Of a stretch of DNA of 64,000 nucleotides, positions 4,478 to 34,000 are shown one piece after another; the stretch's first letter is position 1, and the number at the start of each line of letters is the position of its first letter. The DNA is taken from sequence record OQ718158.1; one strand, written 5' to 3'. The notes under the pieces were generated by a model. That model was given only the letters and a program-made list of their open reading frames with translations. It did no database searches and was not told where the DNA came from. Made by a program: the position numbers and the translations under genes. Source of the DNA: Escherichia phage vB_Ec-M-J.

Positions 4478-5163
4478 TTAAAGATTTAGATAGAATTTTA
4501 TATGTACTGAGAGGTGTAATTACATTACAACCACAGGTTAATCGTATGGAGAGAGCCTTTGAATTAAAATCAAGAGAAACTCCATATTCACATATATCAA
4601 ATGTAGTTGGATCATTCAGTACTGAAGACTCGCCTTATGATATTTGTGTATGTGAAGTACAGCCAAGTTCGGATCTTGGATTTGCTATTTTTGATAAAAA
4701 TCAAAATCTCATTAGTATGTTTCAGTGCAATAATCCTTTTTGGAAAACATGCCTGTATCCAGAGTGGGCTATGCTTGATCCAACAAAGAGTTCCATTAAA
4801 GTATATGACTCTAAAAATGATGAAGTCGTTATTGATTTGGATGAGTCAATGTCAGAGGAAGAACACTTTCAGCTAATGATGATGCGTGCTATGCCTGAGT
4901 ACAATGCAATGATTAACACTGTGCAATACATTAAGGATACCATGCCATCGTTGCGTACACATGAGTTTTGTCATCCGGTATTGTATGAACATTTGGATTT
5001 AGATTTCAGTACTATTAAATTTAAAGATAATGTTATTAATTACATTCAAGAGAATGTTAAATTTGATTTTATTAGTACAATGACAAATAATCCAAATACT
5101 AATTTCAGGCATCAGTACAATGAATCTTTGTCTGGTGGTCGTGATACAACTTGGTGGAAATAA
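4474..5163 (+). CDS. hypothetical protein
   Basis: Track ORF; ATGA overlap with upstream gene. Confidence 0.55.
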   Translation: MIKDLDRILYVLRGVITLQPQVNRMERAFELKSRETPYSHISNVVGSFSTEDSPYDICVCEVQPSSDLGFAIFDKNQNLISMFQCNNPFWKTCLYPEWAMLDPTKSSIKVYDSKNDEVVIDLDESMSEEEHFQLMMMRAMPEYNAMINTVQYIKDTMPSLRTHEFCHPVLYEHLDLDFSTIKFKDNVINYIQENVKFDFISTMTNNPNTNFRHQYNESLSGGRDTTWWK

Positions 5164-5164
5164 T

Positions 5165-5428
5165 ATGAATATCCAAGATAGATTGCAATTGTTGCACACA
5201 CTTGAAGAAGCTGCTTTTGAACTTGTTAATAAAATTGCACAAGAACTCCCAAAAGGAACCAAAGTTCGTGTTCGTGAAATGGATTATTTAACGGGAAAAA
5301 TTGATGAAAAAGTTCTAACAGTGATCAAAGTAACATACTATGAATCAGAGTTATCAATTCAATGTAATTCAGATAATGGTTACGTTTCCTACTATGGTAC
5401 AGATGTAGATATAGAGGTAATAAAATGA
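5165..5428 (+). CDS. hypothetical protein
   Basis: ATG at 5165 directly after the upstream stop; inside track ORF 5120..5428. Confidence 0.5.
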   Translation: MNIQDRLQLLHTLEEAAFELVNKIAQELPKGTKVRVREMDYLTGKIDEKVLTVIKVTYYESELSIQCNSDNGYVSYYGTDVDIEVIK

Positions 5429-6567
5429 CCCTTTTACAAATATATGAAGATTTAATGCACTTATGTAATACCCGTGATGCTTTCTTTTATGTGGATCATA
5501 AAAGTCCTGCTGGTGGAACATATCGTGTATTCAGTTATCGTCTAGCATCATATACCGATTTCATGCAACCCAATGCATTAGAAACCCGTGGTTCTATGTG
5601 GGAAATTGATGAAGACGGTGATATGATTCGTTGTGCTGCTCGTACTATGAAAAAGTTCTTCAATGCTTACGAAAATCCTGCTACAATGTTCCCTGCTGAT
5701 ACCTCATTCGATGACATTGCAGTAGTGATGCCTAAGTTGGATGGTTCAGTAATCAGTACTTACCGTGATAATGATGGTGTAATTCGTTGTAAATCACATA
5801 CTGCATTGTATTCAGACCATGCGATTAACAGTACTCGTCTTCTCAATGAGAACCAAAATTTGTATCAATACATTGACGAAGCAGACCGTTTGGGCTATAC
5901 TGTTAATCTGGAGTATACAAGTCCAGAGTACCGTATTGTATTACCATATCAGGTTGAACAATTATTTGTACTAAACGTTCGCAATCGTAAGAGTGGTGAA
6001 CTATTATGTGGTTCTGCATTACGTAATAAGTTCCCATGCCTTGCACAGTACAGTACTAACATGACAGGTAAAGATATTCATTACACTTTCCCTGCTCGTG
6101 CTACATTCAAAGAAAGTGTTGAAGAAGTTAAGAAAATGCTTGACATTGAAGGTTTTGTGTGCATCCTAAATAATGGTACAATGTGCAAAATCAAAACCGA
6201 CTGGTATTGTTCTTTGCATTTAACGAAAGACAGTATTATAATCGATTCCCATTTATATGAAGCTGTATTAAATGGTTCGAGTGATGATTTAAAACAGTTG
6301 TTCAGTACTGACGAATATGCTACCCAAAAGATATTAAGAATGGAACAACTAGTCTTTTCGTGCTATAATGCTTTACAAGATGAAGTTGAAAGCTTCGTCA
6401 AGGAACACAAGCACTTGGAGCGAAAGGAATTCGCTAAGAAGGTTCAGGAGTGTTTAACTAATGAACTGAATCGTCAGGGCTTGGCCTTTGCAATGTACAA
6501 CAATAAGAAAGTCGATTACAAAGAGACTCTTATTAAGTACATGAAAATTGTACTAAAGGATTTTTAG
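5425..6567 (+). CDS. rnlA: RNA ligase 1 (T4 RnlA-like)
   Basis: Recalled similarity to T4 Rnl1 along the N-terminal half (GTYRVFSY, KFFN, KLDGS lysine-adenylation motif, VKSDWY-like segment). Confidence 0.85.
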   Translation: MTLLQIYEDLMHLCNTRDAFFYVDHKSPAGGTYRVFSYRLASYTDFMQPNALETRGSMWEIDEDGDMIRCAARTMKKFFNAYENPATMFPADTSFDDIAVVMPKLDGSVISTYRDNDGVIRCKSHTALYSDHAINSTRLLNENQNLYQYIDEADRLGYTVNLEYTSPEYRIVLPYQVEQLFVLNVRNRKSGELLCGSALRNKFPCLAQYSTNMTGKDIHYTFPARATFKESVEEVKKMLDIEGFVCILNNGTMCKIKTDWYCSLHLTKDSIIIDSHLYEAVLNGSSDDLKQLFSTDEYATQKILRMEQLVFSCYNALQDEVESFVKEHKHLERKEFAKKVQECLTNELNRQGLAFAMYNNKKVDYKETLIKYMKIVLKDF

Positions 6568-6596
6568 TACTATCTAGCCTAGCACAAGGAGAAGTG

Positions 6597-6851
6597 ATGG
6601 CTAAACCTAAGTATAAAAATGACGGTTCCCTTTCTCCGACAGAATTCAGGAAAATACAAGAAGAAATCGATGAATTACAGCACAAACGCTCTAAGAAAGG
6701 TGTGAAGATTAGTAAGAAACGAATCGAGAATACTTTCGGGTGTAGTAGTACTGAATACAAGAAGAAAAGGAAACCAAAAGGTGTTAAGCCGAGAATACAT
6801 GATGTAACTCGCTATACATCGAAACGTGAAAATAAATTCGACCCACTATAA
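6597..6851 (+). CDS. hypothetical basic protein
   Basis: Lys/Arg-rich ORF; AAGGAG RBS. Confidence 0.5.
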   Translation: MAKPKYKNDGSLSPTEFRKIQEEIDELQHKRSKKGVKISKKRIENTFGCSSTEYKKKRKPKGVKPRIHDVTRYTSKRENKFDPL

Positions 6852-6860
6852 GGAGTTCAT

Positions 6861-7097
6861 ATGAAAGTTGAAGTTCAGCATAGTATTGTTCAGGATATGT
6901 CAGTAGTTAAATTTCTTTCCTTGAAAGATTATTTCAGATGTATCAAGTTCCTAGAAGAATCTCAATTACAGTGGACCCCATTAAAGTACAGTTCATCCAA
7001 TGATACTGCTAGTATTCGTTGTGATGAATCTGTACTTGTGAAAATCTCCAAGCGATTTGGGATTGGAAAATACAATGATAAACAATGCACAAAGTAA
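6861..7097 (+). CDS. hypothetical protein
   Basis: Track ORF; AAGGAG RBS. Confidence 0.5.
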   Translation: MKVEVQHSIVQDMSVVKFLSLKDYFRCIKFLEESQLQWTPLKYSSSNDTASIRCDESVLVKISKRFGIGKYNDKQCTK

Positions 7098-7386
7098 TTT
7101 GCTATATATAAAGTCAGTTGAAGCTGAAATTAAAAATTCAGTTCAAACTATCGTCGAGGAAATGATTGACAAATACAAGAGCAATCTTATTGGAAAGAAA
7201 GTCAGATGTTGGGATTACACATTCAAACACTGGTACGATTCCGAGATTGTGAAAGTTGATGTGAATACTGATAGTAATGGTCTAATTAATGGTATTGCGT
7301 ATGTTGGTGTTTTAATACGCAAGGGAACGCCACAGGAATGGCTCACCTATCATAATATAGAGCATGTTAAATTTATAGAGGATTAA
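7075..7386 (+). CDS. hypothetical protein
   Basis: In-frame ATG at 7075 of track ORF 7057..7386; start uncertain. Confidence 0.4.
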   Translation: MINNAQSNLLYIKSVEAEIKNSVQTIVEEMIDKYKSNLIGKKVRCWDYTFKHWYDSEIVKVDVNTDSNGLINGIAYVGVLIRKGTPQEWLTYHNIEHVKFIED

Positions 7387-7389
7387 AGG

Positions 7390-8322
7390 ATGCCAACTAT
7401 CACACTAACAGTTGGATTGCCTGGGTGTGGTAAAACTACATGGGCAGTGCAAGAGATTAAAAAAGCCAAATCCAAGACTATCAACATCAACCGTGATGAT
7501 ATTCGTGAATCTATGGCTGGGTCACATGATGCTTACAAATTCAACGATGCTAATGAGCAGTACGTAACTAATTTACAGTTCAGTGCAGCAAATTCAGCCG
7601 CAGAGAATGGTTGGAACATCATCATATCCGATACGAACCTTAAACAACATTTCCGTAATCTATGGAAAGTATGGGCTATAGATAATGGTTATGATTACAA
7701 AGAAAAGAATTTCTATGATGATTTTGTACCTAATGAAGACCGTGGTGCAGATGTTCATGAATTCTTTAAGATTAAAGAGTTCGTAAAACTTTGTAAGAAA
7801 TATAACCTCCAGCGTGAGCGTTCAGTACAAGATAATATCATTGACACTATGGCAGATACGTACTATTATAGTAAGGCATTACACATTGGTTACTATGGTA
7901 ATTCACGAGAAGCTGCTATTATCGTTGATATCGACGGTACTCTTGCTCATAAATGGGGACGTAACCCGTTCGATGAAAGTACTGTACTCCAGGATACACC
8001 AGACGAAGAAGTTATTTTGTCGATTATCGCAGAAGCAGTTTTTCATAAACGCAAGATTATCGTCATGAGTGGGCGTACTGAAGGGTGTCGTGCTGATACC
8101 GAACAGTGGCTTAAGAATTGGGGTGTTCCTTACGATGCGTTGTTTATGCGAGGCATCGATGATAAACGTCCTGATGATGTTGTTAAATTCGACCTGTACA
8201 TGAAAAATGTGGTTGATCATTACGATGTTAAAAAGGTTTATGATGACCGCAATCAAGTTGTTTTTATGTGGCGTAAGCTACTTGGGTTGAAAGTTTTCCA
8301 AGTGGCAGAAGGAAATTTCTAA
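7390..8322 (+). CDS. pseT: polynucleotide 5'-kinase / 3'-phosphatase (T4 PseT-like)
   Basis: N-terminal P-loop GLPGCGKTT; HAD-type phosphatase motif DIDGT; C-terminal WQVA..G.F as in T4 Pnk. Confidence 0.9.
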   Translation: MPTITLTVGLPGCGKTTWAVQEIKKAKSKTININRDDIRESMAGSHDAYKFNDANEQYVTNLQFSAANSAAENGWNIIISDTNLKQHFRNLWKVWAIDNGYDYKEKNFYDDFVPNEDRGADVHEFFKIKEFVKLCKKYNLQRERSVQDNIIDTMADTYYYSKALHIGYYGNSREAAIIVDIDGTLAHKWGRNPFDESTVLQDTPDEEVILSIIAEAVFHKRKIIVMSGRTEGCRADTEQWLKNWGVPYDALFMRGIDDKRPDDVVKFDLYMKNVVDHYDVKKVYDDRNQVVFMWRKLLGLKVFQVAEGNF

Positions 8323-17670: not shown

Positions 17671-18366
17671 ATGGTTGAACAATTCAATTTTGGTGGTTAT
17701 GCTGGTGGTGAAGTTCGCAACATTTCTATTCCTTATGTAGTTGAAAAAGTTAATGGTGCAGAACGTACTTATGATCTAGCATCTCGTATGATGCAAGACC
17801 GTATCATTTTCCTTGATACTGACTTCAATGACCAAATGGCACATATCATCAAGCAACAATTGGTGTGGTTGGATTCTCAGGGTTCTGAACCAATTACCTT
17901 CTACATTAGTTCTCCTGGTGGTTCAGTACACGCAGGTTTGGGTATCGCTGACATTGCTAAGTCTTGTGTATCTCCTATCCGTACAGTAGTAATGGGTTAT
18001 GCAGCATCAATGGGTTGCTATACACAATCAGTAGTTGGGACTAAAGGTTTCCGTCTAGGTGGTAAGCGTTCTTACTTCATGTGTCATCAAGTAAGTTCCG
18101 GTACTCAGGGTCTGATTACCGATCAGAAGATTTCTTTGAAACACTCTGACGCATTGAACACACTATTGACGAAAGAAATTGCTGAAGCAGTTGGTGTATC
18201 ACACGAACAACTACTGAAAGATGCTGACCGTGACCTGTGGTTGAACGCTGAAGAAGCACTCGAATACGGTGAACATGGTTTCATTGATGGTATCATCCTT
18301 GGTCCACGCAACGAAGAAGGTAAGTATCTCGTCAAACGTCGCGGTGGCGTGGAAGAGTGGGTCTAA
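17671..18366 (+). CDS. ClpP-family serine peptidase
   Basis: ClpP-like SSPGGSVHAG, catalytic-Ser context AASMG, His context CHQ; GAGGAAAA RBS. Confidence 0.8.
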   Translation: MVEQFNFGGYAGGEVRNISIPYVVEKVNGAERTYDLASRMMQDRIIFLDTDFNDQMAHIIKQQLVWLDSQGSEPITFYISSPGGSVHAGLGIADIAKSCVSPIRTVVMGYAASMGCYTQSVVGTKGFRLGGKRSYFMCHQVSSGTQGLITDQKISLKHSDALNTLLTKEIAEAVGVSHEQLLKDADRDLWLNAEEALEYGEHGFIDGIILGPRNEEGKYLVKRRGGVEEWV

Positions 18367-18380
18367 TTTGAATTTCATTT

Positions 18381-18408
18381 GATGCCTCATTTGGGGCATC
18401 TTATTTCT
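18381..18408 (+). terminator. rho-independent terminator
   Basis: GATGCC...GGCATC hairpin followed by TTATTTCT. Confidence 0.5.
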
Positions 18409-18417
18409 GGAGATTAT

Positions 18418-18708
18418 ATGAAAGTTCTTGTACGTAATAATACTGAAGTCAATGATGTGTTGGATGATTCAGAGTTTATTAATGTCGCATTAGATCAGAT
18501 TAGTGCAGTAGCTCTTGAATTGAAAGGTGTTGACGAGGCAGAACGAGTACTCAATGGTTTTTCTATTGTTCTCGAACTAATGCAAGAAGTTCTTATTAAA
18601 AAGAACATTAATCCAATTAACGCAGTTCAACACGCAGAAGCTATGCGTCAAGAACATGGCACATTCTCAGATAAAAAATTCATCAGTACTGACGAGGGGA
18701 AAGAATAA
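18418..18708 (+). CDS. hypothetical protein
   Basis: ATG at 18418 with GGAG RBS; the longer track ORF would include the terminator hairpin. Confidence 0.5.
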   Translation: MKVLVRNNTEVNDVLDDSEFINVALDQISAVALELKGVDEAERVLNGFSIVLELMQEVLIKKNINPINAVQHAEAMRQEHGTFSDKKFISTDEGKE

Positions 18709-19795: not shown

Positions 19796-20323
19796 ATGAA
19801 ATACACTGCTCTTAGCCCAACTGATACTAAAGTATGGTTGAGTAATTTGAACAAAACTATTATTTTAACCAAAAAAGTGATATCAACAGCTAATTCATTA
19901 GATGTAAATATCAAGAAGAATGTTCTTAAATATCATCACCGAAGTAAACTTAGTACTTGGTACTCCAATATTTTTTACGGCTTATATGGGATGGATGATA
20001 TTTTAATTGGTACATCATCTGGGTCATGCTTCAGTGCTGGTGGTATGTGCTTTATGGATTTGGGTTTTTCATTATCCGATGAAGAAATCGAGTTTAAACA
20101 ATTCCGTGACAAGTTACTGGGTTCGGGTGATATCAAGTTCTGTACAGAATTAATGGGAGCATGGGACGTTTATGCAGCGAAACCATTTGACATTGAAGAA
20201 TCAGATGTGCTAAACTACCTTCGTGTTCTTAAAATACATTCGAACTGTAAAACCAAATTACAATCCCTAGGAGTATATGATGAAACACTTGACGTGGTTG
20301 AAGATAGCCGAAGTCGTGGCTGA
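19796..20323 (+). CDS. hypothetical protein
   Basis: Track ORF; AGAGGA RBS. Confidence 0.5.
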   Translation: MKYTALSPTDTKVWLSNLNKTIILTKKVISTANSLDVNIKKNVLKYHHRSKLSTWYSNIFYGLYGMDDILIGTSSGSCFSAGGMCFMDLGFSLSDEEIEFKQFRDKLLGSGDIKFCTELMGAWDVYAAKPFDIEESDVLNYLRVLKIHSNCKTKLQSLGVYDETLDVVEDSRSRG

Positions 20324-20759
20324 AGAGAGTAAATGCATTTCACAGAAAGTTGGTTGTGTTATTGTTAAAAATAACCGAGTATTGAGTACTGGTTATAATG
20401 GCACTCCATCTAAACAACCTAACTGCTGTGACGCTAATGAGCACTTAGTTAATGGTGGACGTTTCCAAGACTGGGTTAGCGATGACGCAAAGCATGAACA
20501 CCATGAATGGAGTAATATCCATGAAATCCATGCTGAAATGAATGCATTGTTATACAGTTCACCTACCGAACGTCAGGGAGCAACACTTTACACAACGCTG
20601 CAACCATGCTATACTTGTTCTAAGTTGATCGCGGGAAGTGGTATTGCTCGCGTGATTTATCACAAAAGTTATCCTCGCACTCCACCAGAAGCTATTAAAG
20701 TACTGGAAGATGCTGGGATTATTGTAAATTGCATTTATGATAAGGGGTTGGGACTTTGA
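20277..20759 (+). CDS. cd: dCMP deaminase (cytidine/deoxycytidylate deaminase zinc-binding domain)
   Basis: HAEMNAL and PCYTCSKLI zinc-binding motifs. Confidence 0.8.
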   Translation: MMKHLTWLKIAEVVAEESKCISQKVGCVIVKNNRVLSTGYNGTPSKQPNCCDANEHLVNGGRFQDWVSDDAKHEHHEWSNIHEIHAEMNALLYSSPTERQGATLYTTLQPCYTCSKLIAGSGIARVIYHKSYPRTPPEAIKVLEDAGIIVNCIYDKGLGL

Positions 20760-21300: not shown

Positions 21301-21909
21301 GTGGTACGATTATGTAAAGAAATCATCCAATCTATTATTATTATTTTCTTAATTAACTTTCCTGCAAGTGCAGGTGTTGAAAGAAAAAGTATCATTAGAT
21401 ATGATGAATCTAAACAGACAGTTCAGTTCATTTCAACTTTAACTGAAAATACTGTAAACCGTTTGATGGTTTTTAGAGAAACACACCCATTTGACACTAT
21501 CATCATTACGTCACCTGGTGGTGATTTTGATGCGGGAGTGGCACTAGGAAATTTTGTCAATGATAACAATTTAACAATTATTGTTGAAAGATATTGTAAT
21601 TCTTCTTGCACTATCGCATTCTTTAGTGCTAATATAGAAAACAGATACATGATGAAGGACTCAATTCTAGGTCTACATAATGTGTCAATCGAAAGTAAAG
21701 CACGAAATAGTGATGACACATACATATCAGTTCGCCAAATGACTATTTTTGCTGAACAGCTATCAACTAAGGTTGGTGTTCTATTTGCGTTATATGCAGC
21801 GAATGGTATTCCTCCAGAATTGTTAGTGGAGGTTAGTAAGGTTCGTGGTAATGAAGTTGTGAGACTTACACCAGATCAGTTGCTCGAATTAGGTAGTATC
21901 ATTCATTAG
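21301..21909 (+). CDS. putative secreted ClpP/SppA-fold serine peptidase-like protein
   Basis: Hydrophobic signal-like N-terminus (IIIIFLINFPASA); ClpP-like ITSPGGDFDAG motif; GTG start with AGAGGG RBS. Confidence 0.5.
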   Translation: MVRLCKEIIQSIIIIFLINFPASAGVERKSIIRYDESKQTVQFISTLTENTVNRLMVFRETHPFDTIIITSPGGDFDAGVALGNFVNDNNLTIIVERYCNSSCTIAFFSANIENRYMMKDSILGLHNVSIESKARNSDDTYISVRQMTIFAEQLSTKVGVLFALYAANGIPPELLVEVSKVRGNEVVRLTPDQLLELGSIIH

Positions 21910-22001: not shown

Positions 22002-22262
22002 ATGACAAATTTACAAAACTTAACATCTCTTGTTTTTTATGCAACAACTATTGTATATTGCATTACATTAGTTTTAACATGTTTCATCTATAAAGACTAC
22101 AAACGTGGTTTTATGGATTCCAGTACACACAAATTTGCATCCAAGTTAGAAGCAGGAATTTACTATGTTCTATCAATTTCTTATGGAGCATGTTTACTTA
22201 CACTAGGGTTGCTGATATACTGGTTGTATACGGCACTTTTTGCACAAGGAGTTATTTCATGA
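22002..22262 (+). CDS. small membrane protein
   Basis: Two hydrophobic helices; AGGAG RBS. Confidence 0.45.
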   Translation: MTNLQNLTSLVFYATTIVYCITLVLTCFIYKDYKRGFMDSSTHKFASKLEAGIYYVLSISYGACLLTLGLLIYWLYTALFAQGVIS

Positions 22263-22852
22263 CTTGTATTATCGCTCACACAAATGGCACATCTTCCTTC
22301 ATCGCTGGTGATAAATTAGGAAGCAATGGTTTCACTAAAGCAGTTCAAACTGAGCCTAAAGTGTTTGAGAAAGAGTTCATTAAACTCAATGAGGATGGTC
22401 TTTCTCGCACTAAAGAAGTAATGGCGTTGGGGTATACTACCTCGTTCCGCATGGGACAGTTGTTGAATTACAACCTAACTCTACCAGAACAAGTTGCAGG
22501 GGAAACCTTTTCACAGTATCTAGTACTGAAAGTTATTCCTATCATTCGTCAAATGTTTAAAGATGAATGGGGTGCTCGTGATGCATCACAAGATGTTGGT
22601 GGTGGTCAGTTCATTATTCTTCATAATCATACGATTTATGAAGTTCAAGAAGACTTTTCAGTACTGCAACCTAAAACACAAATTACTGCTGTCGGAAGTG
22701 GGACTTATCATGCAATTGCATCCATGTCAGCGTATATTGAAGTTCAAGAAGAAACCAATGTTCAGTTACATGAACGTGTTGAGTCTATTTTCAAAATTGT
22801 TAGTGATAATGTAACAAGTGTTAGTCCAGAGTTTGATATTTTGAAATACTGA
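22259..22852 (+). CDS. HslV-like Ntn-hydrolase (proteasome beta-subunit-like) peptidase
   Basis: After Met, N-terminal Thr (TCIIA..NG...IAGD) as in HslV; C-terminal AVGSGTYHA resembles HslV GSGG; AAGGAG RBS 7 nt upstream of ATG 22259. Confidence 0.55.
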   Translation: MTCIIAHTNGTSSFIAGDKLGSNGFTKAVQTEPKVFEKEFIKLNEDGLSRTKEVMALGYTTSFRMGQLLNYNLTLPEQVAGETFSQYLVLKVIPIIRQMFKDEWGARDASQDVGGGQFIILHNHTIYEVQEDFSVLQPKTQITAVGSGTYHAIASMSAYIEVQEETNVQLHERVESIFKIVSDNVTSVSPEFDILKY

Positions 22853-23084: not shown

Positions 23085-23837
23085 GTGATATCAGATAAAT
23101 TTATACAAAATGCTGGGAACAAAAGATTACTTATAATTTCAGGGGCAGGTCTTTCAGTTGAGAGCGGGATGGAACCATTCCGCTTTGATGATGGGTTGTG
23201 GGACAATTTCAAAATTAATGATGTTTGTAACATTGCACGACTTAGTTCTAAGTATCATGTAGTTCATTCATTTTATAATACATTGCGTGTAAAATTAGGT
23301 GAATGTCATCCTAATGAAATGCATTACTTTATTAAATCATTAGAAGATTTGTATGGTGATTGTTTTTTACACATGACTTCTAATATGGATGATCTATATA
23401 CTAGAATTGGTGGAACCGAACTCAAACTACACGGCAATTTATGTGAAGTAATTGAGAACTTTTCTATTAATACCGATGATTACAATGTCATTAATTGTGG
23501 TTATGAACCATATATTCCTAAAGCTGATGTTTTTGCAAAACCAAATGTAGTGATGATTGGTGAGTATCATCGCTACGTTGATGGGGTACGTCTCCCCATT
23601 TATGAAGAACGAAATGAAGTGTTGAAAAGTCTCACAGAAAATGATACAGTTGTAGTTATTGGAAGTAGTGATACAGTACTGGTATGGTCCAGACTAGCTG
23701 GTGCACTTCCATGCTATAGTGTAAATGTTAACATCCGAAAAAATGATAATGATTTTCTTTTTAATGAGAAGGTCATCAAACCTGCGACGAAAGCAATTCC
23801 ACAGATTGAAACTATAATTAAGGAACGAATGCGATGA
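23085..23837 (+). CDS. Sir2-family (sirtuin-like) NAD-dependent deacylase/ADP-ribosyltransferase
   Basis: GAGLSVESG..FR..GLW; TSNMD (TQNID-like); VVVIGSS; GTG start with AAGGAG RBS. Confidence 0.7.
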   Translation: MISDKFIQNAGNKRLLIISGAGLSVESGMEPFRFDDGLWDNFKINDVCNIARLSSKYHVVHSFYNTLRVKLGECHPNEMHYFIKSLEDLYGDCFLHMTSNMDDLYTRIGGTELKLHGNLCEVIENFSINTDDYNVINCGYEPYIPKADVFAKPNVVMIGEYHRYVDGVRLPIYEERNEVLKSLTENDTVVVIGSSDTVLVWSRLAGALPCYSVNVNIRKNDNDFLFNEKVIKPATKAIPQIETIIKERMR

Positions 23838-25075: not shown

Positions 25076-26515
25076 ATGAAAAAATATACAATTGACACAA
25101 ACGTACTACTATCTGATCCAAATGCTACCATTGCTTTTGATGGAGCAGCTATCATTCTACCGTTCACAGTACTTGAAGAATTGGATTCAATTAAAAGTCG
25201 TAATGTGGATGTTTCCCGTGATGCTCGTGTTGCAATCCGTAACATTGAAGCTATCCTTTCTGATGCATCACATGAAGAAATTAGTAGTACTGGTGTTAAT
25301 ATTGCTGATGTTCATACTAATATGAGTCCTGAAAGCAAATTGTTTGTTATTACAAGCGAAGAAGCTGAAGCACTAATTCGTACTGCTGGTAACGAAGAGA
25401 AAGTTCAAACTCTTCTAAAAAGCACAGTACCAGATGATAAAATCATTTTAGTAGCATTAGCAACTGATTCAGTACTGGTTACCCGTGATATCAATATGCG
25501 TATCAAGGCTCTAAGCTACGGGGTGGAAGTTCAAGATTATCGTCATGATATCGTGATTGGTGATAGTGATTTGATTCACATTGGTCAACATCACCTTGAC
25601 CTACATTTCTGGGATGTGTATAGTAATCTGACTGATGTATCTATTCAGTCTGAACAAGTTGGTCGTCGTTTGTACCACTACATTCCAAAAAGCTTGATTG
25701 AACATATCATGCCACAAAATATTTGCATCGGTGATTACCTATATGATAATGCTGATGTTCTATTTGTGTACGAAGGTCAATCTGCAATTGAAGAAGATGA
25801 TGGTACTTTAACACCAGAAGATATTCTTGTATTCCAAGATATTGGACAATCTGTTGCTCTACGTGCTAAAGTGTGGGATATTAAGGCTAAGAATATTCAA
25901 CAAGCACTAGCAATCAACAGTATCCTAGATCCTGATGTTCATCTAACAGTACTGTTAGGTTCAGCAGGTACTGGTAAAACACTAATCACCATTGCAACTG
26001 CACTAGAGTTAGTTCTAGAGAAGAAAAAATACGACCGTATCATCTTCTCCAAAACACAAGATTCCCAATTCGAAGACATTGGTTTCTTGCCTGGTTCTGA
26101 AGCAGAGAAAGTGATTCCTTTCTGTGGTGCGGCAATCGATGCGTTGGAATTCCTACACAAAGATGATGCTAACCCACAAGGCAGTATCGAAGAAATCATG
26201 AAACGCAATGTTATCCAATTCAAAGCACTAAACTTCGTTCGTGGTCGTTCTTTCACAAATACTATCCTAGTAGTTGATGAATTCCAGAACATCACACCTG
26301 CTCAGGCAAAAACAATCTTGACTCGTGCAGGGATGAACTGTAAAGTGGTTATTATGGGCAACTTGAGCCAGATTGACTCTAAATTCATTAGTCCAGTAAA
26401 CAGCGGCCTAACTTATGTTACCGAGAAGTTCAAGAACTGGGACGGCTGTCGTGTAATCGAACTAGAAGGTGTCGTTCGTTCACCACTAGCAGAATTTGCA
26501 GAAGAAAATATGTAA
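25076..26515 (+). CDS. phoH: PhoH-like ATPase with N-terminal PIN domain
   Basis: Walker A LLGSAGTGKT, Walker B VVDEFQN; N-terminal PIN-like acidic residues. Confidence 0.85.
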   Translation: MKKYTIDTNVLLSDPNATIAFDGAAIILPFTVLEELDSIKSRNVDVSRDARVAIRNIEAILSDASHEEISSTGVNIADVHTNMSPESKLFVITSEEAEALIRTAGNEEKVQTLLKSTVPDDKIILVALATDSVLVTRDINMRIKALSYGVEVQDYRHDIVIGDSDLIHIGQHHLDLHFWDVYSNLTDVSIQSEQVGRRLYHYIPKSLIEHIMPQNICIGDYLYDNADVLFVYEGQSAIEEDDGTLTPEDILVFQDIGQSVALRAKVWDIKAKNIQQALAINSILDPDVHLTVLLGSAGTGKTLITIATALELVLEKKKYDRIIFSKTQDSQFEDIGFLPGSEAEKVIPFCGAAIDALEFLHKDDANPQGSIEEIMKRNVIQFKALNFVRGRSFTNTILVVDEFQNITPAQAKTILTRAGMNCKVVIMGNLSQIDSKFISPVNSGLTYVTEKFKNWDGCRVIELEGVVRSPLAEFAEENM

Positions 26516-29548: not shown

Positions 29549-30163
29549 ATGACTACATCTGAAAAGTACTGGTGGATTATGGGCCATCCTAAATTCATCA
29601 ACGGAGATATGGTTCCCCCAAGGATTGATATCGAACCACATGATGTGTGTCCAATCACAAACCGCATTGAATCATTTAAAGCTCTGAATACAAAGACACA
29701 ATTTTGGGTAGAATTCATCTCACCTATGTACGTTGAGCAAGATGATGAATGGGTACAAGCACATGATTATGAGTTAGATTGCGGTGGTGATACTTATGAT
29801 GAGGCAATTGATGAACTATACAAAAATGTGCTAAACACTTATGGTGATTACACCCAACAAGAAGCAGACGATACGTTTAATAAGATCCATGCAGTCATTC
29901 CTACATCATCAATTTACAATTCAGCAAAAACAGTTTGGGAAGAACGTCACGGGTGGAGTTCATCTGTAATTGATGCAGAAGCCAAAGAAACAATTCTCGA
30001 AGACATAAAAAATATAAAAAGTACAATAGAAGCCTTGCGTGAATTTATAAAGTCTTGTACAATAGAACAACAGAAAGAGGCAAAGATGCATTTGGAGAGT
30101 GAAGAATGTAAACTTTGGGTTCTAGAGAAATCATTTGAAAAGGGTATAGACTTAGACTTATGA
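29549..30163 (+). CDS. hypothetical protein
   Basis: ATG at 29549 with GGAG RBS; within track ORF 29537..30163. Confidence 0.5.
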   Translation: MTTSEKYWWIMGHPKFINGDMVPPRIDIEPHDVCPITNRIESFKALNTKTQFWVEFISPMYVEQDDEWVQAHDYELDCGGDTYDEAIDELYKNVLNTYGDYTQQEADDTFNKIHAVIPTSSIYNSAKTVWEERHGWSSSVIDAEAKETILEDIKNIKSTIEALREFIKSCTIEQQKEAKMHLESEECKLWVLEKSFEKGIDLDL

Positions 30164-30528
30164 ATCGTAAACTTGAGAAACTAATTGAAGAACTACGCCG
30201 GATGCCACCCATCGAGCAAGTGGGGAGCTACAAACGTTATCGTGTGATTGCTCGTGCACTAGATAAGAAAGGTCGTGTATTGGCAACACGTACTAATTCT
30301 TACACACATACTCACCCAGTACAGAAAGGTTTTGCAATCCGTGCTGGGCGTCCACAAGGTGAATTTCTTCATGCTGAAATCTCATGTTTGCTGGCTTCTC
30401 GTGCTGAAGTTCATACTTTGTTGATTGCACGGGTAAGTAAAGATGGTATTCCAGTCCCTGCCAAGCCTTGTGAGATTTGTACGTTGGCAATTCTGGAATA
30501 TGGGGTAAAAGAAATTATTCACACATGA
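30160..30528 (+). CDS. CDA-fold (cytidine/nucleotide deaminase-like) zinc-binding protein
   Basis: HAEISCL ... PCEICTLAI, the H[AC]E / PCxxC deaminase signature (TadA/CDA-like). Confidence 0.55.
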   Translation: MNRKLEKLIEELRRMPPIEQVGSYKRYRVIARALDKKGRVLATRTNSYTHTHPVQKGFAIRAGRPQGEFLHAEISCLLASRAEVHTLLIARVSKDGIPVPAKPCEICTLAILEYGVKEIIHT

Positions 30529-30746
30529 AGAAAATTGAACGCTACCAAAACCATACAGTTGTGACTGAAGATGATATATTTTATTATTATATTTTCAGAC
30601 CCACACACTGTTTACAAATAACGACATATGAGAATGGTAAATTCAAAGATGTCAACTTCCATATAACAGATTTAGCAAAATATTCCAGTACTGAATACTT
30701 TAGTAATTTAGTATTTGTGTACTGTATACCACATCATAACATTTAA
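30525..30746 (+). CDS. hypothetical protein
   Basis: ATG at 30525 (ATGA overlap) within track ORF 30477..30746. Confidence 0.4.
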   Translation: MKKIERYQNHTVVTEDDIFYYYIFRPTHCLQITTYENGKFKDVNFHITDLAKYSSTEYFSNLVFVYCIPHHNI

Positions 30747-30756
30747 GGAGTCAACT

Positions 30757-31116
30757 ATGGCTAAAACTATTTCTTTAAAAAATGAAAATGTAGGACAACG
30801 CAAAGATGGGTTCTTTGGATTCTCATGGACAACATTGTTCTTTGGTCCGTTCCCTGCATTGTTTCGTGGTGACTTTATTACGTTCATCGGTGCATTTGTA
30901 ATTTACTTCATCCTCAACGCAGTGTCTTTTTGGATTGTGGGTACAGTTGCAATGGTCGTGTGGGCATTTCTTTATAATAAGTACTACACTGTGAATCTCA
31001 TCAAGAATGGGTATAAATTCAATGGTACACATGAAGAAAATGCTGAAGCTGCAATGGCGTTACAAATTGATCTAAACAAAAACAATACTGTAGATAAAAA
31101 CAAAGAACCAGAATAA
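30757..31116 (+). CDS. membrane protein
   Basis: ATG at 30757 with AAGGAG RBS; two hydrophobic helices. Confidence 0.55.
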   Translation: MAKTISLKNENVGQRKDGFFGFSWTTLFFGPFPALFRGDFITFIGAFVIYFILNAVSFWIVGTVAMVVWAFLYNKYYTVNLIKNGYKFNGTHEENAEAAMALQIDLNKNNTVDKNKEPE

Positions 31117-31335
31117 ATGGATCAATATGAGATAACTTACGATTATTATGGTAAGGCTTATATGAAGTGTGGTCGTTTTATTGAACTATCGAATAGAGAA
31201 GCAATCGACCCACAAACCATTATATCCATCCATAACTCGTACTATAAAAAAATTACCATAGCTAATTTTGCAACATACGTAGATAATCCTATATTTCCGT
31301 ATATTATTCAGTTCTATTGTAGAGCTATAAAATAA
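31117..31335 (+). CDS. hypothetical protein
   Basis: Track ORF. Confidence 0.45.
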   Translation: MDQYEITYDYYGKAYMKCGRFIELSNREAIDPQTIISIHNSYYKKITIANFATYVDNPIFPYIIQFYCRAIK

Positions 31336-31346
31336 GGTAAAACGAA

Positions 31347-31757
31347 ATGTTAGCCGATGATTTTATGTCTCTAAGTATCAAGATATTTGATATATTAGGT
31401 GATGAAATAGATTTCCATCTAAATGATAAAACTATACCACACGAAGATGGTGGGTATTTTTTCGCATTTGGTAATAAGTTCAATGTTGATTTTTCAATTC
31501 CGGTTCCTGATGGAAGTGATTATGCAGCATCAACATATTTTGAATTTCAGTTCAGTGGTCATACCGAGCGTTTACTAACATATAGACGTAAAGGAAATTT
31601 CAGTAGGCCAGAGATTATATTAATGGATTTTGAAAAACGCATAGAACTTGCCAAGAATAATCCATTCATCAGTACTTATGCGTTAAACCAATTCATTGAT
31701 CTATTTGATGGATATCCAGACAGAATACGAGGGTCGTTACGTATAAATGCAGAATGA
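31347..31757 (+). CDS. hypothetical protein
   Basis: Track ORF; TAAGGT RBS. Confidence 0.5.
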   Translation: MLADDFMSLSIKIFDILGDEIDFHLNDKTIPHEDGGYFFAFGNKFNVDFSIPVPDGSDYAASTYFEFQFSGHTERLLTYRRKGNFSRPEIILMDFEKRIELAKNNPFISTYALNQFIDLFDGYPDRIRGSLRINAE

Positions 31758-32058: not shown

Positions 32059-32194
32059 ATTTGTACAAATATAAAGCAATGTGACCTTTCCTTGATATAG
32101 GTCAAGAGAAATACCCTGTTCTGACGCTATAATGGTGTCTGGTGATGTTAAATAACTTCACCCCCAGATGATTTCAAAATACAAGGAAAGTAAA

Positions 32195-34000
32195 ATGCAA
32201 TTAGATAAATTATATACTGACGTAACAAATTTCCTAAATCAGAGCAATACTGATCTTACAAATGAAAATGCAAACAAAGATGCGAAATGCGTCAATACAC
32301 ACAGGGATTTACTTGCTGGTATCCTATCTAAGCATTATTCACAAGATGTTATTCCAAAGGAGCTAATGCAGTGGCATAATGATGGTTATGGTCACATTCA
32401 TGATTTAGACTACTATATCAGCCCATTAACTAACTGCTGCTTGGTTAACTACCCAGATATGCTAAAAAATGGATTTACCATTGGTTGTGCAAAAATTGAA
32501 GAACCAAAGAGTTTTAGTGTAGCATGTACAGTACTGACACAAATTGTACAAGCTGTTGCTAGTTCCCAGTACGGTGGTCAATCGTTGGCTCATATCGACG
32601 TGGGTCTTGAACCTTACGTCCAAAAGTCGTGGGATAAGCTATTAGCGAAGCAAAAGGCATATAATCTCAGTACTGAATACATTGAGGAAGAATTACGAAA
32701 AGAAGTCTATGATGGGTGTCAAACCTTACTTTACCAGACAAATTCAATGATTAGTACAAATGGTCAAGCAGCATTCATTTCTCTTAGTTTGGGACTGAAT
32801 ACTTCAAAATTTGGTAAATTAATCACTGAACAGTACTTAAAAGTACATGAGAATGGTTTAGGTAAAGATAAGATTACTCCTGTGTTTCCTAAAGTAATTT
32901 TCTTTTTACAGGACGGAATCAACATGAATAGCGATGATTGCAACTATGACATGAAACAGTTGGCAATGCGTTGTGCATCGAAGAGAATCTACCCAGACTT
33001 CGTTTCTGTGCCGTTAAATCACAAAGTTACAGGAAGTGGCAGTACAGCAGTAACTCCGATGGGTTGTCGTTCATTTTTAGGAAAATGGGAAGATTCCAAT
33101 GGAAATGAGCAATATAACGGTCGTTTCAACTTAGGCGTAGTTTCTATCAATTTACCTCTAATTGCTCTTGAAAGTGCCTCAGATGGAGAGTTTTTTGATA
33201 AAATAGACGAGCATATGAATATTGCATATCGTGCTCAGATGAACCGTGTAGAGCGTTTAAAAGGCACAAAAGCGAAGCAGAATCCGATTTTGTTCATGGA
33301 AGGTGCACTTTCACGTTTAGGGGCAGAAGAAACGATTGACAAGCTATTTTATAACGGATATGCTAGTATTAGTATTGGTTACGTTGGTTTAGTTGAATGT
33401 TCAGAAATTCTGACTGGTTCTATCAGTAAGGAGTTCTGCATGTCAGTACTGAATTATATGAAAGTAAAATGCGATGAGTTCAAAAAAGAGAGTAATATAG
33501 CTTTTAGTCTATATGGAACCCCAGCAGAGTCACTTTGCTACAAATTTGCACGTTGCATCGAATCTAAATACCCTTCAGTACTAAAACGTGATTACATCAC
33601 AAATTCCTTCCACCAACCAGTATGGGTAGCAAGTTCACCATTTGATAAGTGGAGTTACGAAGAGGGTTTTGCTTACCTCAGTAATGGTGGAAACATCAGT
33701 TATGTTGAATCACCCAACCTAAGTAACAATATTCAAGCACTTGAGACTTTAGTCAATTACGCTTACACAAAGATCCCATATTTTGGTATCAACCAGCCAA
33801 TTGACCAGTGTTACGAGTGTGGGTATAAAGGTGAGTTCAGTGTAGATAAACACGGTTTTCATTGTCCAGTATGTGATAATCGCAATGAGAAGACAATCTC
33901 AGTGATTCGTCGTGTTTCTGGATATTTGGGGAACCCATCGTCTCGTGGATTCAACAAAGGCAAACAACAAGAATGTTGTGAGCGTATACAACACAAATAA
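32195..34000 (+). CDS. nrdD: anaerobic ribonucleoside-triphosphate reductase NrdD
   Basis: N-terminus resembles T4 NrdD (NENANKD, TNCCLV); C-terminal zinc site CYECG...CPVC; glycyl-radical motif RRVSGYLG; ATG 32195 with AAGGAAAG RBS. Confidence 0.9.
   Translation: MQLDKLYTDVTNFLNQSNTDLTNENANKDAKCVNTHRDLLAGILSKHYSQDVIPKELMQWHNDGYGHIHDLDYYISPLTNCCLVNYPDMLKNGFTIGCAKIEEPKSFSVACTVLTQIVQAVASSQYGGQSLAHIDVGLEPYVQKSWDKLLAKQKAYNLSTEYIEEELRKEVYDGCQTLLYQTNSMISTNGQAAFISLSLGLNTSKFGKLITEQYLKVHENGLGKDKITPVFPKVIFFLQDGINMNSDDCNYDMKQLAMRCASKRIYPDFVSVPLNHKVTGSGSTAVTPMGCRSFLGKWEDSNGNEQYNGRFNLGVVSINLPLIALESASDGEFFDKIDEHMNIAYRAQMNRVERLKGTKAKQNPILFMEGALSRLGAEETIDKLFYNGYASISIGYVGLVECSEILTGSISKEFCMSVLNYMKVKCDEFKKESNIAFSLYGTPAESLCYKFARCIESKYPSVLKRDYITNSFHQPVWVASSPFDKWSYEEGFAYLSNGGNISYVESPNLSNNIQALETLVNYAYTKIPYFGINQPIDQCYECGYKGEFSVDKHGFHCPVCDNRNEKTISVIRRVSGYLGNPSSRGFNKGKQQECCERIQHK

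Follow-up and report, generated by a model that had tools for sequence, protein, structure and literature searches.

Why does a phage that encodes a canonical deoxycytidine monophosphate (dCMP) deaminase also carry a second, smaller deaminase gene, and on what would its product act? The question is raised by a stretch of 64,000 nucleotides from Escherichia phage vB_Ec-M-J (OQ718158.1; hereafter the window), in which an earlier note, made from the letters alone, had pointed to a 122-aa protein as a second deaminase of the cytidine deaminase (CDA) fold. Our analysis shows that 30160–30528 is a real, conserved, expressed-type gene. The encoded protein has the core of a CDA-superfamily zinc deaminase with all catalytic residues kept, so that zinc binding and deamination are predicted, and it falls within a large, virus-restricted clade that has a signature of its own and lies outside the dCMP deaminase, TadA and CDA clades by their defining features. 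With regard to the substrate, the evidence favours free cytosine nucleotides, with nucleic acid ranked second and TadA-type tRNA editing least likely. The following features of the window carry the argument (ORF, open reading frame; AF2, AlphaFold2).

20277–20759, + strand: canonical dCMP deaminase, 160 aa, the comparison gene (PF00383, 78.4 bits; PHROG_174, 4e-62)
30160–30528, + strand: minimal zinc deaminase gene, 122 aa, PHIKZ260/RaK2 ORF518 family (ATG at 30160, TGA at 30526–30528; ORF list and sequence)
30160–30163, + strand: ATGA overlap of the deaminase start with the stop of the upstream ORF (29537/29549–30163; sequence and ORF list)
30295–30324, + strand: family motif N46-S-Y-T-H-T-H52-P53-V-Q55 (consensus N-S-Y-x-K-T-H-P-x-Q; column counts and model)
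30370–30378, + strand: H71-A72-E73 (codons cat gct gaa), predicted His zinc ligand and catalytic (proton-shuttle) Glu where helix 2 begins
30430–30432, + strand: R91, the family's hallmark arginine at the end of strand 3, with a 10-residue insert between it and PCxxC (alignment)
30466–30480, + strand: P103-C104-E105-I106-C107 (codons cct tgt gag att tgt), two predicted Cys zinc ligands where helix 3 begins
30511–30528, + strand: C-terminus with strand 4 (E118-I-I-H121; E118–121 by DSSP on the AF2 model), T122 and the stop; no helix 4 or strand 5
30525–30528, + strand: ATGA overlap of the deaminase stop with the start of a downstream 73-aa ORF (30525–30746; sequence)

The HAE...PCxxC zinc signature claimed by the earlier note is indeed read at residues 71–73 and 103–107. 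In all six frames of the 64-kb window, the pattern HxE-x(15–45)-PCxxC has exactly two matches, namely the 122-aa protein and the dCMP deaminase, and it did not occur once in 100 shuffles of the sequence. Among Asteriusvirus orthologues, the ratio of nonsynonymous to synonymous substitutions (dN/dS) is 0.03–0.06 at a dS of 0.5–1.0, indicating strong purifying selection. The confinement of the signature to two deaminases, the shuffles, the many homologues and the low dN/dS together rule out a chance ORF or motif. The guanine-cytosine (GC) content of the ORF is 43% compared with 35% for the window, which might hint at recent horizontal acquisition; this was ruled out by the GC content at third codon positions, which at 0.285 equals that of the neighbouring genes, so that the elevated value reflects amino-acid composition and the gene has long been resident. 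The ATGA overlaps at both ends show the gene to be embedded in a tightly packed operon on the + strand, and the overlap at the start codon is also annotated in Turkey3, 121Q, JP4, RaK2 and EJP2.

The window derives from a RaK2/121Q-like jumbo coliphage, which shares 98% identity with Turkey3 over 3 kb and has 35 related records. Homologues of the 122-aa protein were identified in 195 phage records, covering RaK2-like and GAP32-like jumbo phages, phiKZ-like Pseudomonas phages, Aeromonas Plateaulakevirus and Synechococcus myophages as well as Xanthomonas phage DES1, Cobetia phage Carin-5 and Ralstonia phage RP13. The labels in these records are inconsistent and range from dCMP deaminase, cytidine deaminase and CMP/dCMP-type deaminase domain protein to TadA and hypothetical. 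The RaK2 record describes ORF518 as "hypothetical, similar to phiKZ ORF260", and gp260 of phiKZ shares 34% identity with the protein of the window; in the RaK2 paper, gp495 is the one gene counted as a dCMP deaminase (PMC3622015).

Conservation was counted in an alignment of 142 family sequences. H71, E73, P103, C104 and C107 are invariant (142/142), which establishes the positional conservation of the zinc ligands on which the earlier proposal depended and, together with the fold described below, bears out a second CDA-fold deaminase. Nearly invariant are R91 (141/142), N46 (140/142) and A72 (139/142), followed by H52 (132/142), P53 (130/142), Q55 (124/142), A59 (123/142), G96 (121/142), K50 (116/142), G115 (108/142) and T51 (107/142). 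At the C-terminus, position 121 is Y, H or F in 134 sequences (98 Y, 20 H including the window protein, 16 F) and position 122 is T or S in 129 (100 T, 29 S). HAE is found in 188 of the 196 members with a recognisable motif and CAE in none. The full signature reads N-S-Y-x-K-T-H-P-x-Q ... [YF]-L-H-A-E ... R91 ... G96 ... A-K-P-C-x-I-C ... G-[IV]-K-x-[VI]-x-[YHF]-[TS], and the window protein matches it at every position but K50, where it has His. The PHIKZ260/RaK2-ORF518-like family is used here as an operational unit, defined by this signature, a length of about 100–135 aa, a single domain and viral origin.

A profile search against 1.84 billion representatives (clusters at 50% identity) returned 4643 proteins at E ≤ 1e-3 and 1154 at E ≤ 1e-10, and every one of the best 150 representatives is a single-domain protein of 96–166 aa. 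In addition, a degenerate DNA pattern for N-S-Y-x-K-T-H-P-x-Q was scanned across viral contigs and species-representative genomes. The viral contigs gave at least 120 matches, and 117 of the 120 listed are true members, mostly of 100–105 aa. In the 596-Gb collection of species-representative genomes, only 10 of 35 pattern matches are true members, all of them on contigs of metagenome-assembled genomes, and the motif scan found none in an isolate genome; a first genome scan with a pattern from an earlier alignment (A1) had returned no cellular homologue at all. Two of these ten members (L021 and L040, those with the longest flanks inspected) lie beside a phage-type cassette of amidoligase, class II glutamine amidotransferase (GATase) and ATP-grasp genes, like the member of Xanthomonas phage DES1. 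Taken together, the viral and cellular scans show the family to be essentially viral. The sequences themselves are already in GenBank under generic names and the kind of enzyme, a CDA-superfamily zinc deaminase, is known, while no published characterisation of PHIKZ260, RaK2 ORF518 or 121Q gp490 was found in the literature searched. The clade as such appears undescribed there, that is, its signature, the combination of a dCMP deaminase-like sequence with a hairpin topology, the widespread four-stranded form of about 100–122 aa, the restriction to viruses and the recurrent pairing with a canonical dCMP deaminase.

The AF2 model, built from the 142-sequence alignment, reached a mean pLDDT (predicted local distance difference test) of 96.1 and a pTM (predicted template modelling score) of 0.88, and both the model and Foldseek confirm the CDA fold. 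Its elements are helix 3–14, strands 28–34 and 40–45, an inserted helix 53–61, helix 72–80 beginning at HAE, strand 86–92, helix 105–114 beginning at PCxxC, and strand 118–121. The modelled protein is a three-layer alpha/beta/alpha core in the order alpha1-beta1-beta2-[inserted helix]-alpha2-beta3-alpha3-beta4, in which the N46–Q55 motif runs from the end of strand 2 into the start of the inserted helix, ahead of HAE. The sheet thus modelled has four strands, and the chain ends at T122 directly after the fourth.

This early end, which the earlier note does not mention, is a property of the family. The tail after PCxxC is bimodal, with about half of the members having 15–17 residues, as in the window protein, and about half 25–29. 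A model of the long-tailed member P0126 (pLDDT 95.2) places strands at 120–125 and 128–133, joined by a two-residue turn into an antiparallel C-terminal hairpin. In the scheme of Iyer et al. 2011 (PMC3239186), such a hairpin marks the division of CDA, blasticidin-S deaminase (BSD), DYW and toxin deaminases, whereas helix 4 marks the division of dCMP deaminase, TadA, RibD, GuaD and APOBEC. Strand 5 of the long-tailed relatives is poorly conserved, and about 60% of these relatives have a Glu at either of two positions. When 161 members were placed on a neighbour-joining tree, the state of the tail changed at least 30 times compared with 52 times with shuffled labels, the tree being noisy given proteins of about 100 residues. 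From these sequences, strand 5 looks dispensable and repeatedly lost or gained. A mis-called or truncated C-terminus, or a read-through or frameshift supplying strand 5, was ruled out because about half of the family ends alike and the extensions are unconserved; the stop codon is TGA in most orthologues and TAA in EJP2 and phiKZ. Likewise ruled out was the downstream 73-aa ORF as a conserved partner completing the sheet: it matches no PHROG or Pfam family, and distant members have unrelated neighbours, none of them a homologue of it. The family therefore combines a dCMP deaminase-like sequence core with a CDA-like topology, of which the window protein is a further reduced, four-stranded form. 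With about half of the family built in this way, it sets a lower bound on the size of a conserved CDA-fold enzyme that is presumably active. The commonest size is smaller still, at 100–105 aa (P0055, P0064, P0188 and most IMG/VR members, L057–L176); profile matches of these members begin at about position 25, just ahead of strand 1, and they appear from their sequences to lack both the N-terminal helix 1 and strand 5, leaving a core smaller than that of the window protein.

How does this protein relate to the canonical enzyme of the same phage? The 160-aa dCMP deaminase has the features expected of its clade, namely NGTP, HAEMNA, TLYTT, a Y-x3-Y-x-R tail, GYNG and a Cys/His-rich insert, and it scores 68.6 bits against ComEB (TIGR02571). 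BLASTP found no similarity between the two proteins (E = 13), which rules out a recent paralogue, and only a profile alignment of the family with the canonical enzyme (hhalign, 97% probability, E 3e-11) relates them, in agreement with the distinctness asserted by the earlier note. The profile search across deaminase clades that the note had proposed placed dCMP deaminases best: against the PDB, the family profile matched the S-TIM5 phage dCMP deaminase (4p9c) at 5e-11, the Streptococcus mutans enzyme (2hvv) at 1e-8, a tRNA deaminase of M. capricolum (6l2m) at 2.5e-8, human dCMP deaminase at 7e-7, T4 Cd (1vq2) at 4e-6, TadA at 4e-5 and CDA at 2e-3 or worse. PHROG_174, "dCMP deaminase", matches the 122-aa protein at 1.8e-11. 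By sequence profile, the family is thus closest to dCMP deaminases.

Nevertheless, most features that define their clade are missing. All clade tests reported here, for dCMP deaminase/ComE, TadA, CDA and toxins alike, use the synapomorphies of Iyer et al. 2011 (PMC3239186). In place of the bihelical insert with a second zinc, the window protein has the single helix 53–61 with no conserved Cys; in place of NxxP at the end of strand 2, it has N46-S-Y-T (family N-S-Y-x); and HxE is followed not by NA but by I-S-C (HAE-I-x-A in the family, with no Asn). Strand 3 of the clade runs from TxxxT straight into PCxxC, as in T-L-Y-T-T-L-Q-PC of the canonical enzyme, whereas T86-L-L-I-A-R91 is separated from P103 by 10 inserted residues that align with a gap in the canonical protein (hhalign). 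The Tyr between strand 4 and helix 4 may be matched by position 121 (Tyr in 98/142, His in the window protein), although no helix 4 follows and nothing corresponds to the second Tyr in the Y-x3-Y segment of the canonical enzyme. Neither helix 4 nor a parallel strand 5 is present, P0126 having an antiparallel hairpin instead, and the allosteric dCTP/dTTP motif G(Y/W)N(A/G) (PMC12088426) is replaced by R44-T45-N46-S47 (family G-x-N-S). True dCMP deaminases thus have an allosteric and second-zinc apparatus and a helix-4/strand-5 module that this protein lacks. Among the NCBIfam deaminase models, none matched the 122-aa protein but cyt_deam_tetra at 12.6 bits, and neither ComEB (TIGR02571) nor the anti-phage dCTP deaminase model was among the matches. 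What the family shares with dCMP deaminases such as 4p9c, 2hvv and 1vq2 is, besides the profile relationship, that phage-encoded examples lie in nucleotide-metabolism or replication neighbourhoods; what it has for itself are the K-T-H-P-x-Q motif, R91, the 10-residue insert before PCxxC and a far more basic character.

This basic character is pronounced. The median isoelectric point (pI) of the family is 9.6–9.8 (about 9.8), with a range of 8.9–10.4 in the viral set, compared with 6.2–9.0 for co-resident canonical dCMP deaminases and a median of 6.7 for small neighbouring ORFs. Twelve alignment positions are Lys or Arg in at least 60% of sequences, including K50, K/R67, R91 and K102 near the catalytic motifs, and the only conserved acidic residues are D35 and E73. 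The carriers are AT-rich, with 30–45% GC in isolated phages and a median of 41% in the 117 viral loci listed. Their hosts (Pseudomonas, Xanthomonas, Ralstonia, Aeromonas, Cobetia, Klebsiella and Synechococcus) are much GC-richer than the phages.

The genomic surroundings of the family were compared for these 117 loci, which form 27 groups at 60% identity. Neighbours include a DnaB-like helicase (8 groups), a Toprim primase (7), a family A DNA polymerase (PolA; 5), a metallophosphatase (5), NrdA (4), an amidoligase/GATase cassette (4), NrdB (3), MazG (3), FEN/RNase H (3+3), NAMPT (3) and ThyX (2 groups, 10 loci), and a replication or nucleotide-metabolism neighbour is present in 13 of the 27 groups. 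In the RaK2-like phages, the minimal deaminase lies just upstream of nrdD/nrdG. The immediate neighbours in the window have no known function, and no similarity was found among the neighbours of distant family members.

Published data on phiKZ bear on the importance of the gene. PHIKZ260 (AF399011, 246758–247117; L011, 5001–5360) has its own primary transcription start site used early in infection (PMC8244752). In a transposon sequencing study (PMC12676376, Tables S2/S3), it received 9 filtered reads at 2 sites and 13 raw reads at 6 sites, while most genes of the surrounding "largely non-essential" block (orf184–304) received about 1000–40,000 reads. The signature resembles that of known essential genes such as chmA, with 13 raw reads (PMC12676376). 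The next gene, PHIKZ260.1, is also depleted (17 filtered reads), and the two are among the most insertion-depleted genes of the block, a point not discussed in that paper (PMC12676376).

Taken together, we tentatively favour, at somewhat less than an even chance, a role in which the enzyme acts, with no allosteric control, as a deaminase of free cytosine (deoxy)nucleotides, a di- or triphosphate being a plausible substrate, and thereby complements the regulated dCMP deaminase in moving pools towards U/T. We infer this from the family's closeness to dCMP deaminases in profile searches, the insert resembling a cap, a genomic context of replication and deoxynucleotide modules, the basic active-site rim and the AT-rich carriers. 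The protein would be a catalytically competent, zinc-dependent hydrolytic deaminase with H71, C104 and C107 as ligands and E73 as proton shuttle and, by analogy with other small CDA-fold enzymes, might work as a homo-oligomer. Its reaction would turn cytosine into uracil in a free, phosphorylated (deoxy)cytidine nucleotide, with no feedback by dCTP or dTTP. A basic rim near the active site (K50/H52, K/R67, R91 and K102) could hold one or more phosphates, so that dCTP, dCDP or another di- or triphosphate is a plausible substrate, and such an unregulated activity would complement the canonical, regulated enzyme. The pyrimidine pool would thus be pushed from C to U/T for an AT-rich phage (35% GC) in a GC-richer host.

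Several points weigh against this role. Family members are known from sequences and models, and the features that define the dCMP deaminase clade are mostly absent; with no Y-x3-Y-x-R after strand 4, phosphate binding would need another route. Structure searches place nucleoside-specific tetrameric CDAs first, and a very basic small protein with an open edge at the usual site of beta5 and helix 4 fits nucleic-acid binding equally well. In the window, as in 8 of the viral loci listed, the gene is accompanied by a canonical dCMP deaminase, which argues against simple dCMP redundancy, and in the contexts compared the gene hardly ever neighbours thymidylate synthase, in contrast to the phage deaminases examined in the NEB study. 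The link to GC content lacks a control set and uses general background values for the hosts, and the depletion of PHIKZ260.1 means that the depletion of PHIKZ260 may be a polar effect.

The co-occurrence of the two deaminases deserves a closer look. A canonical dCMP deaminase of 145–160 aa is found in the same locus in 8 of the 117 loci listed (2 groups). In four IMG/VR loci, L105 (2719–3458), L163 (8376–9115), L124 (2194–3109) and L075 (758–1652), a minimal deaminase of about 102 aa and a canonical one of 145 aa are adjacent on the same strand, and in L105 and L163 the stop of one gene abuts or overlaps the start of the other. This arrangement suggests a functional pairing, and its recurrence in other phage lineages argues that the two enzymes are non-redundant. 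One could read the pairing as evidence for a regulatory or non-catalytic subunit forming hetero-oligomers with the canonical enzyme, in the manner of ADAT3 with ADAT2 or of the N- and C-domains of CDADC1, or for an enzyme with a non-cytosine substrate. The adjacent, co-oriented genes and the presence of both in the window would fit, and a partner might complete the incomplete sheet. However, the catalytic Glu is kept throughout the family, whereas ADAT3 and the N-domain of CDADC1 have lost theirs (PMC12088426). Moreover, within the few kb inspected only those 8 loci have a canonical partner, no neighbour is conserved, and no canonical deaminase is annotated in the regions read of phiKZ, DES1, RP13 and Carin-5, whole genomes not having been scanned. 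We therefore regard this explanation as quite improbable. The genomic context, the pairing with dCMP deaminase and the depletion in phiKZ suggest an unrecognised, non-redundant step in the pyrimidine pools of AT-rich phages, or an activity on nucleic acid.

The gene is part of a long block on the + strand of the window. Upstream of it follow in order a T4 Rnl1-type RNA ligase (5425–6567; PF09511, PF20819) and a polynucleotide kinase-phosphatase (Pnkp; kinase and PNKP HAD domains; 7390–8322), both on the + strand and about 0.8 kb apart, a DNA ligase, ClpP, the canonical dCMP deaminase, a Sir2-family gene and a PIN-PhoH fusion. Rnl1 and Pnkp constitute the classical tRNA-repair pair countering anticodon nucleases. 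Up to three ClpP-like genes lie within 5 kb on the + strand (17671–18366, 21301–21909 and 22190–22852), the first with 142.9 bits, the second marginal at 20.6 bits against a cut-off of 20.2, and the third with no Pfam match and named only in Turkey3, as an ATP-dependent protease subunit. Between the two deaminase genes are the Sir2-family protein (23085–23837, + strand; NAD-dependent deacylase in Turkey3) and the PIN-domain/PhoH fusion of 479 aa (25076–26515, + strand).

Downstream, nrdD and nrdG lie about 1.6 kb from the minimal deaminase. The class III anaerobic ribonucleotide reductase NrdD is encoded at 32168–34000 (+ strand, 556.7 bits); in Turkey3, an ORF of about 108 aa separates nrdD from the activase gene nrdG, which lies about 0.3 kb beyond nrdD. 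In RaK2 and phiKp_21, the minimal deaminase is much nearer to nrdD, since counterparts of the window genes at 30525–31746 are absent. A 109-aa ORF at 18379–18708 (+ strand) corresponds in part to a Turkey3 coding sequence annotated as a nucleoside triphosphate pyrophosphohydrolase (MazG-like), while the window ORF itself has no Pfam match at E ≤ 1e-3; should it truly encode a dUTP/dCTP pyrophosphatase, it would bear on a route from dCTP via dUTP to dUMP. Elsewhere in the family, 4 of the 27 groups (L003, the Xanthomonas phage DES1 locus, 5032–7986; L021; L040; and L098, 4691–7291) have, no more than a few kb from the minimal deaminase, a cassette of the Amidoligase_2, class II glutamine amidotransferase, ATP-grasp and gamma-glutamylcyclotransferase type.

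To which of the other known deaminase systems can the minimal family be compared? The earlier note had called the protein TadA/CDA-like, of which the first half did not hold, while the second holds for topology, in the longer relatives with a hairpin. TadA/Tad2 enzymes have EPCxMC, compared with K102-P-C-E-I-C here (position 102 is Lys or Arg in 72% of members), and they continue with strand 5 and two C-terminal helices bearing a conserved E and F, where the window protein ends after strand 4. An Asn in strand 2 is common to both (N46), but also to several other clades, and is thus not discriminating. The NCBIfam TadA model (NF008113) did not match the 122-aa protein at E ≤ 1, while it matched the canonical dCMP deaminase weakly. 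A TadA-like adenosine-34 deaminase acting on phage or host tRNA-Arg(ACG) would agree with the JGI names of three members (P0021, P0029 and P0043, "tRNA(Arg) A34 adenosine deaminase TadA") and with HAEI-x-AL, which resembles helix 2 of TadA. RaK2-like phages also carry tRNAs and tRNA-repair genes (PMC3622015), Rnl1 and Pnkp being present in the window. Such an enzyme would, however, lack the C-terminal helices that bind the anticodon loop, and the window has no tRNA gene. In addition, 24 residues lie between N46 and H71, while the corresponding Asn–His gap in TadA is about 9 residues. We give this possibility very little credence.

The nearest structures are those of another clade. Foldseek with the window model returned homotetrameric CDAs and BSD on top (clades that include, for example, 3dmo, 4wif, 4f3w and 1wn5), which are of similar size (about 120–135 aa) and share the antiparallel strand-4/strand-5 hairpin with the longer family members, although not with the window protein, which has no strand 5. 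The longer relatives, too, have tetrameric CDA as their best structural match. The motifs of the clade fit less well. C[H]AE is represented here by HAE, the minority variant of that clade; the Arg of PCxxCR is replaced by T108 (Q, E, M or S in the family) and the sugar-binding Glu of N-x-E by Y48; and the Glu at the strand 5 end of the C-terminal hairpin is missing together with the strand. A CDA-type nucleoside deaminase, converting C or dC to U or dU and feeding salvage by thymidine kinase and thymidylate synthase, would be in line with the Foldseek ranking, the hairpin of longer relatives and the thymidine kinase encoded by RaK2-like phages (PMC3622015). Besides the motif differences, the score of 12.6 bits against TIGR01354 is far below its cut-off of 113.65, the profile matches to CDA are poor next to those to dCMP deaminases, and it is not obvious what a strongly basic rim of the active site would do with an uncharged nucleoside. 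Such an activity thus seems improbable to us. As the family fails the defining tests of dCMP deaminase, TadA and CDA alike, function should not be transferred from any of them.

A further comparison concerns deaminases acting on polymers. Only in the nucleic-acid toxin clades YwqJ and BURPS668_1122 had a core truncated after strand 4 been described previously (PMC3239186). The YwqJ clade is alike in its His-bearing insert before helix 2, in an insert between strand 3 and CxxC and in ending after strand 4; this likeness is one of architecture only, and its Gx[CH]xE motif is absent from the window protein (F69-L70-H71-A-E). MafB19 likewise has an N at the end of strand 2, HxE and a G at the start of strand 4. 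Its model (PF14437) gave the window protein 13 bits against a cut-off of 27, matched 83 of the 142 members at E ≤ 0.01 and gave the canonical dCMP deaminase 57.6 bits, while the Pfam YwqJ model matched none of the 142 members and the SCP1.201, APOBEC and SNAD models gave no match. Furthermore, mSCD-B5 and its relatives, 5mC-selective deaminases of phages that go under the annotation of dCMP deaminases (PF00383/PF14437), are active on modified dC nucleotides and on single-stranded DNA (bioRxiv 10.1101/2024.12.05.627091), so that in this superfamily the substrate cannot be read off the annotation. In this comparison by description, those enzymes differ in having been chosen for thymidylate-synthase-like linkage in phages with modified cytosines, whereas the window gene is unlinked.

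These precedents are the background for the second-ranked explanation, that of a polynucleotide deaminase acting on cytosine (or adenine) in single-stranded DNA or RNA, for instance in uracilation of host DNA that infection exposes or in editing of host or phage RNA, as a tiny counterpart of APOBEC, SsdA or TadA. The very basic family with its 12 conserved Lys/Arg positions is consistent with it, as are the matches of the family profile to the M. capricolum tRNA deaminase and to TadA, and a co-occurring canonical enzyme means that the minimal one is not needed for dCMP. In the model, one side of the core lies open, and with helix 4 and strand 5 gone, polymers would gain access to the active site. 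However, the insert separating strand 2 from helix 2 is positioned like the cap that restricts dCMP deaminases to soluble substrates, and no toxin-deaminase model of Pfam was matched above its threshold; PADLOC gave no match for the 122-aa protein either. Nothing of a polymorphic-toxin context was found, that is, no secretion signal or domain, no repeats, no immunity gene and no extra nucleic-acid-binding domain. The members are stand-alone proteins of 96–166 aa in replication, nucleotide or early blocks of lytic phages, where a DNA mutator would endanger the phage's own DNA. A polynucleotide deaminase is therefore unlikely in our view, though less so than the nucleoside, subunit and tRNA alternatives. 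The further-reaching proposal that these are the smallest natural nucleic-acid deaminases (100–122 aa, four-stranded, pI about 10), used by lytic phages on single-stranded DNA or RNA, for instance in uracilating exposed host DNA or in editing transcripts or tRNAs, we consider slightly less likely again. Its consequences would be considerable: interest in the family would rise sharply if the enzyme acted on nucleic acids or an unexpected nucleotide, a nucleic-acid role would amount to a new phage strategy, and any member of 100–120 aa acting on DNA or RNA would be a very compact scaffold for base editors and of interest for sequencing chemistries.

For the favoured deamination of a free cytosine nucleotide, a comparison can be made with the CDA-fold (d)CTP deaminases, namely bi-DCD of PBCV-1 (7fh4), the 5mdCTP deaminase of phage XP-12 and human CDADC1 (9hfq), which are likewise zinc-dependent and of which two of the three are viral. 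CDADC1 and the XP-12 enzyme are triphosphate-specific and show an accumulation of Lys and Arg around the active site (PMC12088426). All of these are DCTD-like proteins of full length, possess helix 4 and strand 5 and form hexamers, and their likeness in charge to the minimal family is one of analogy.

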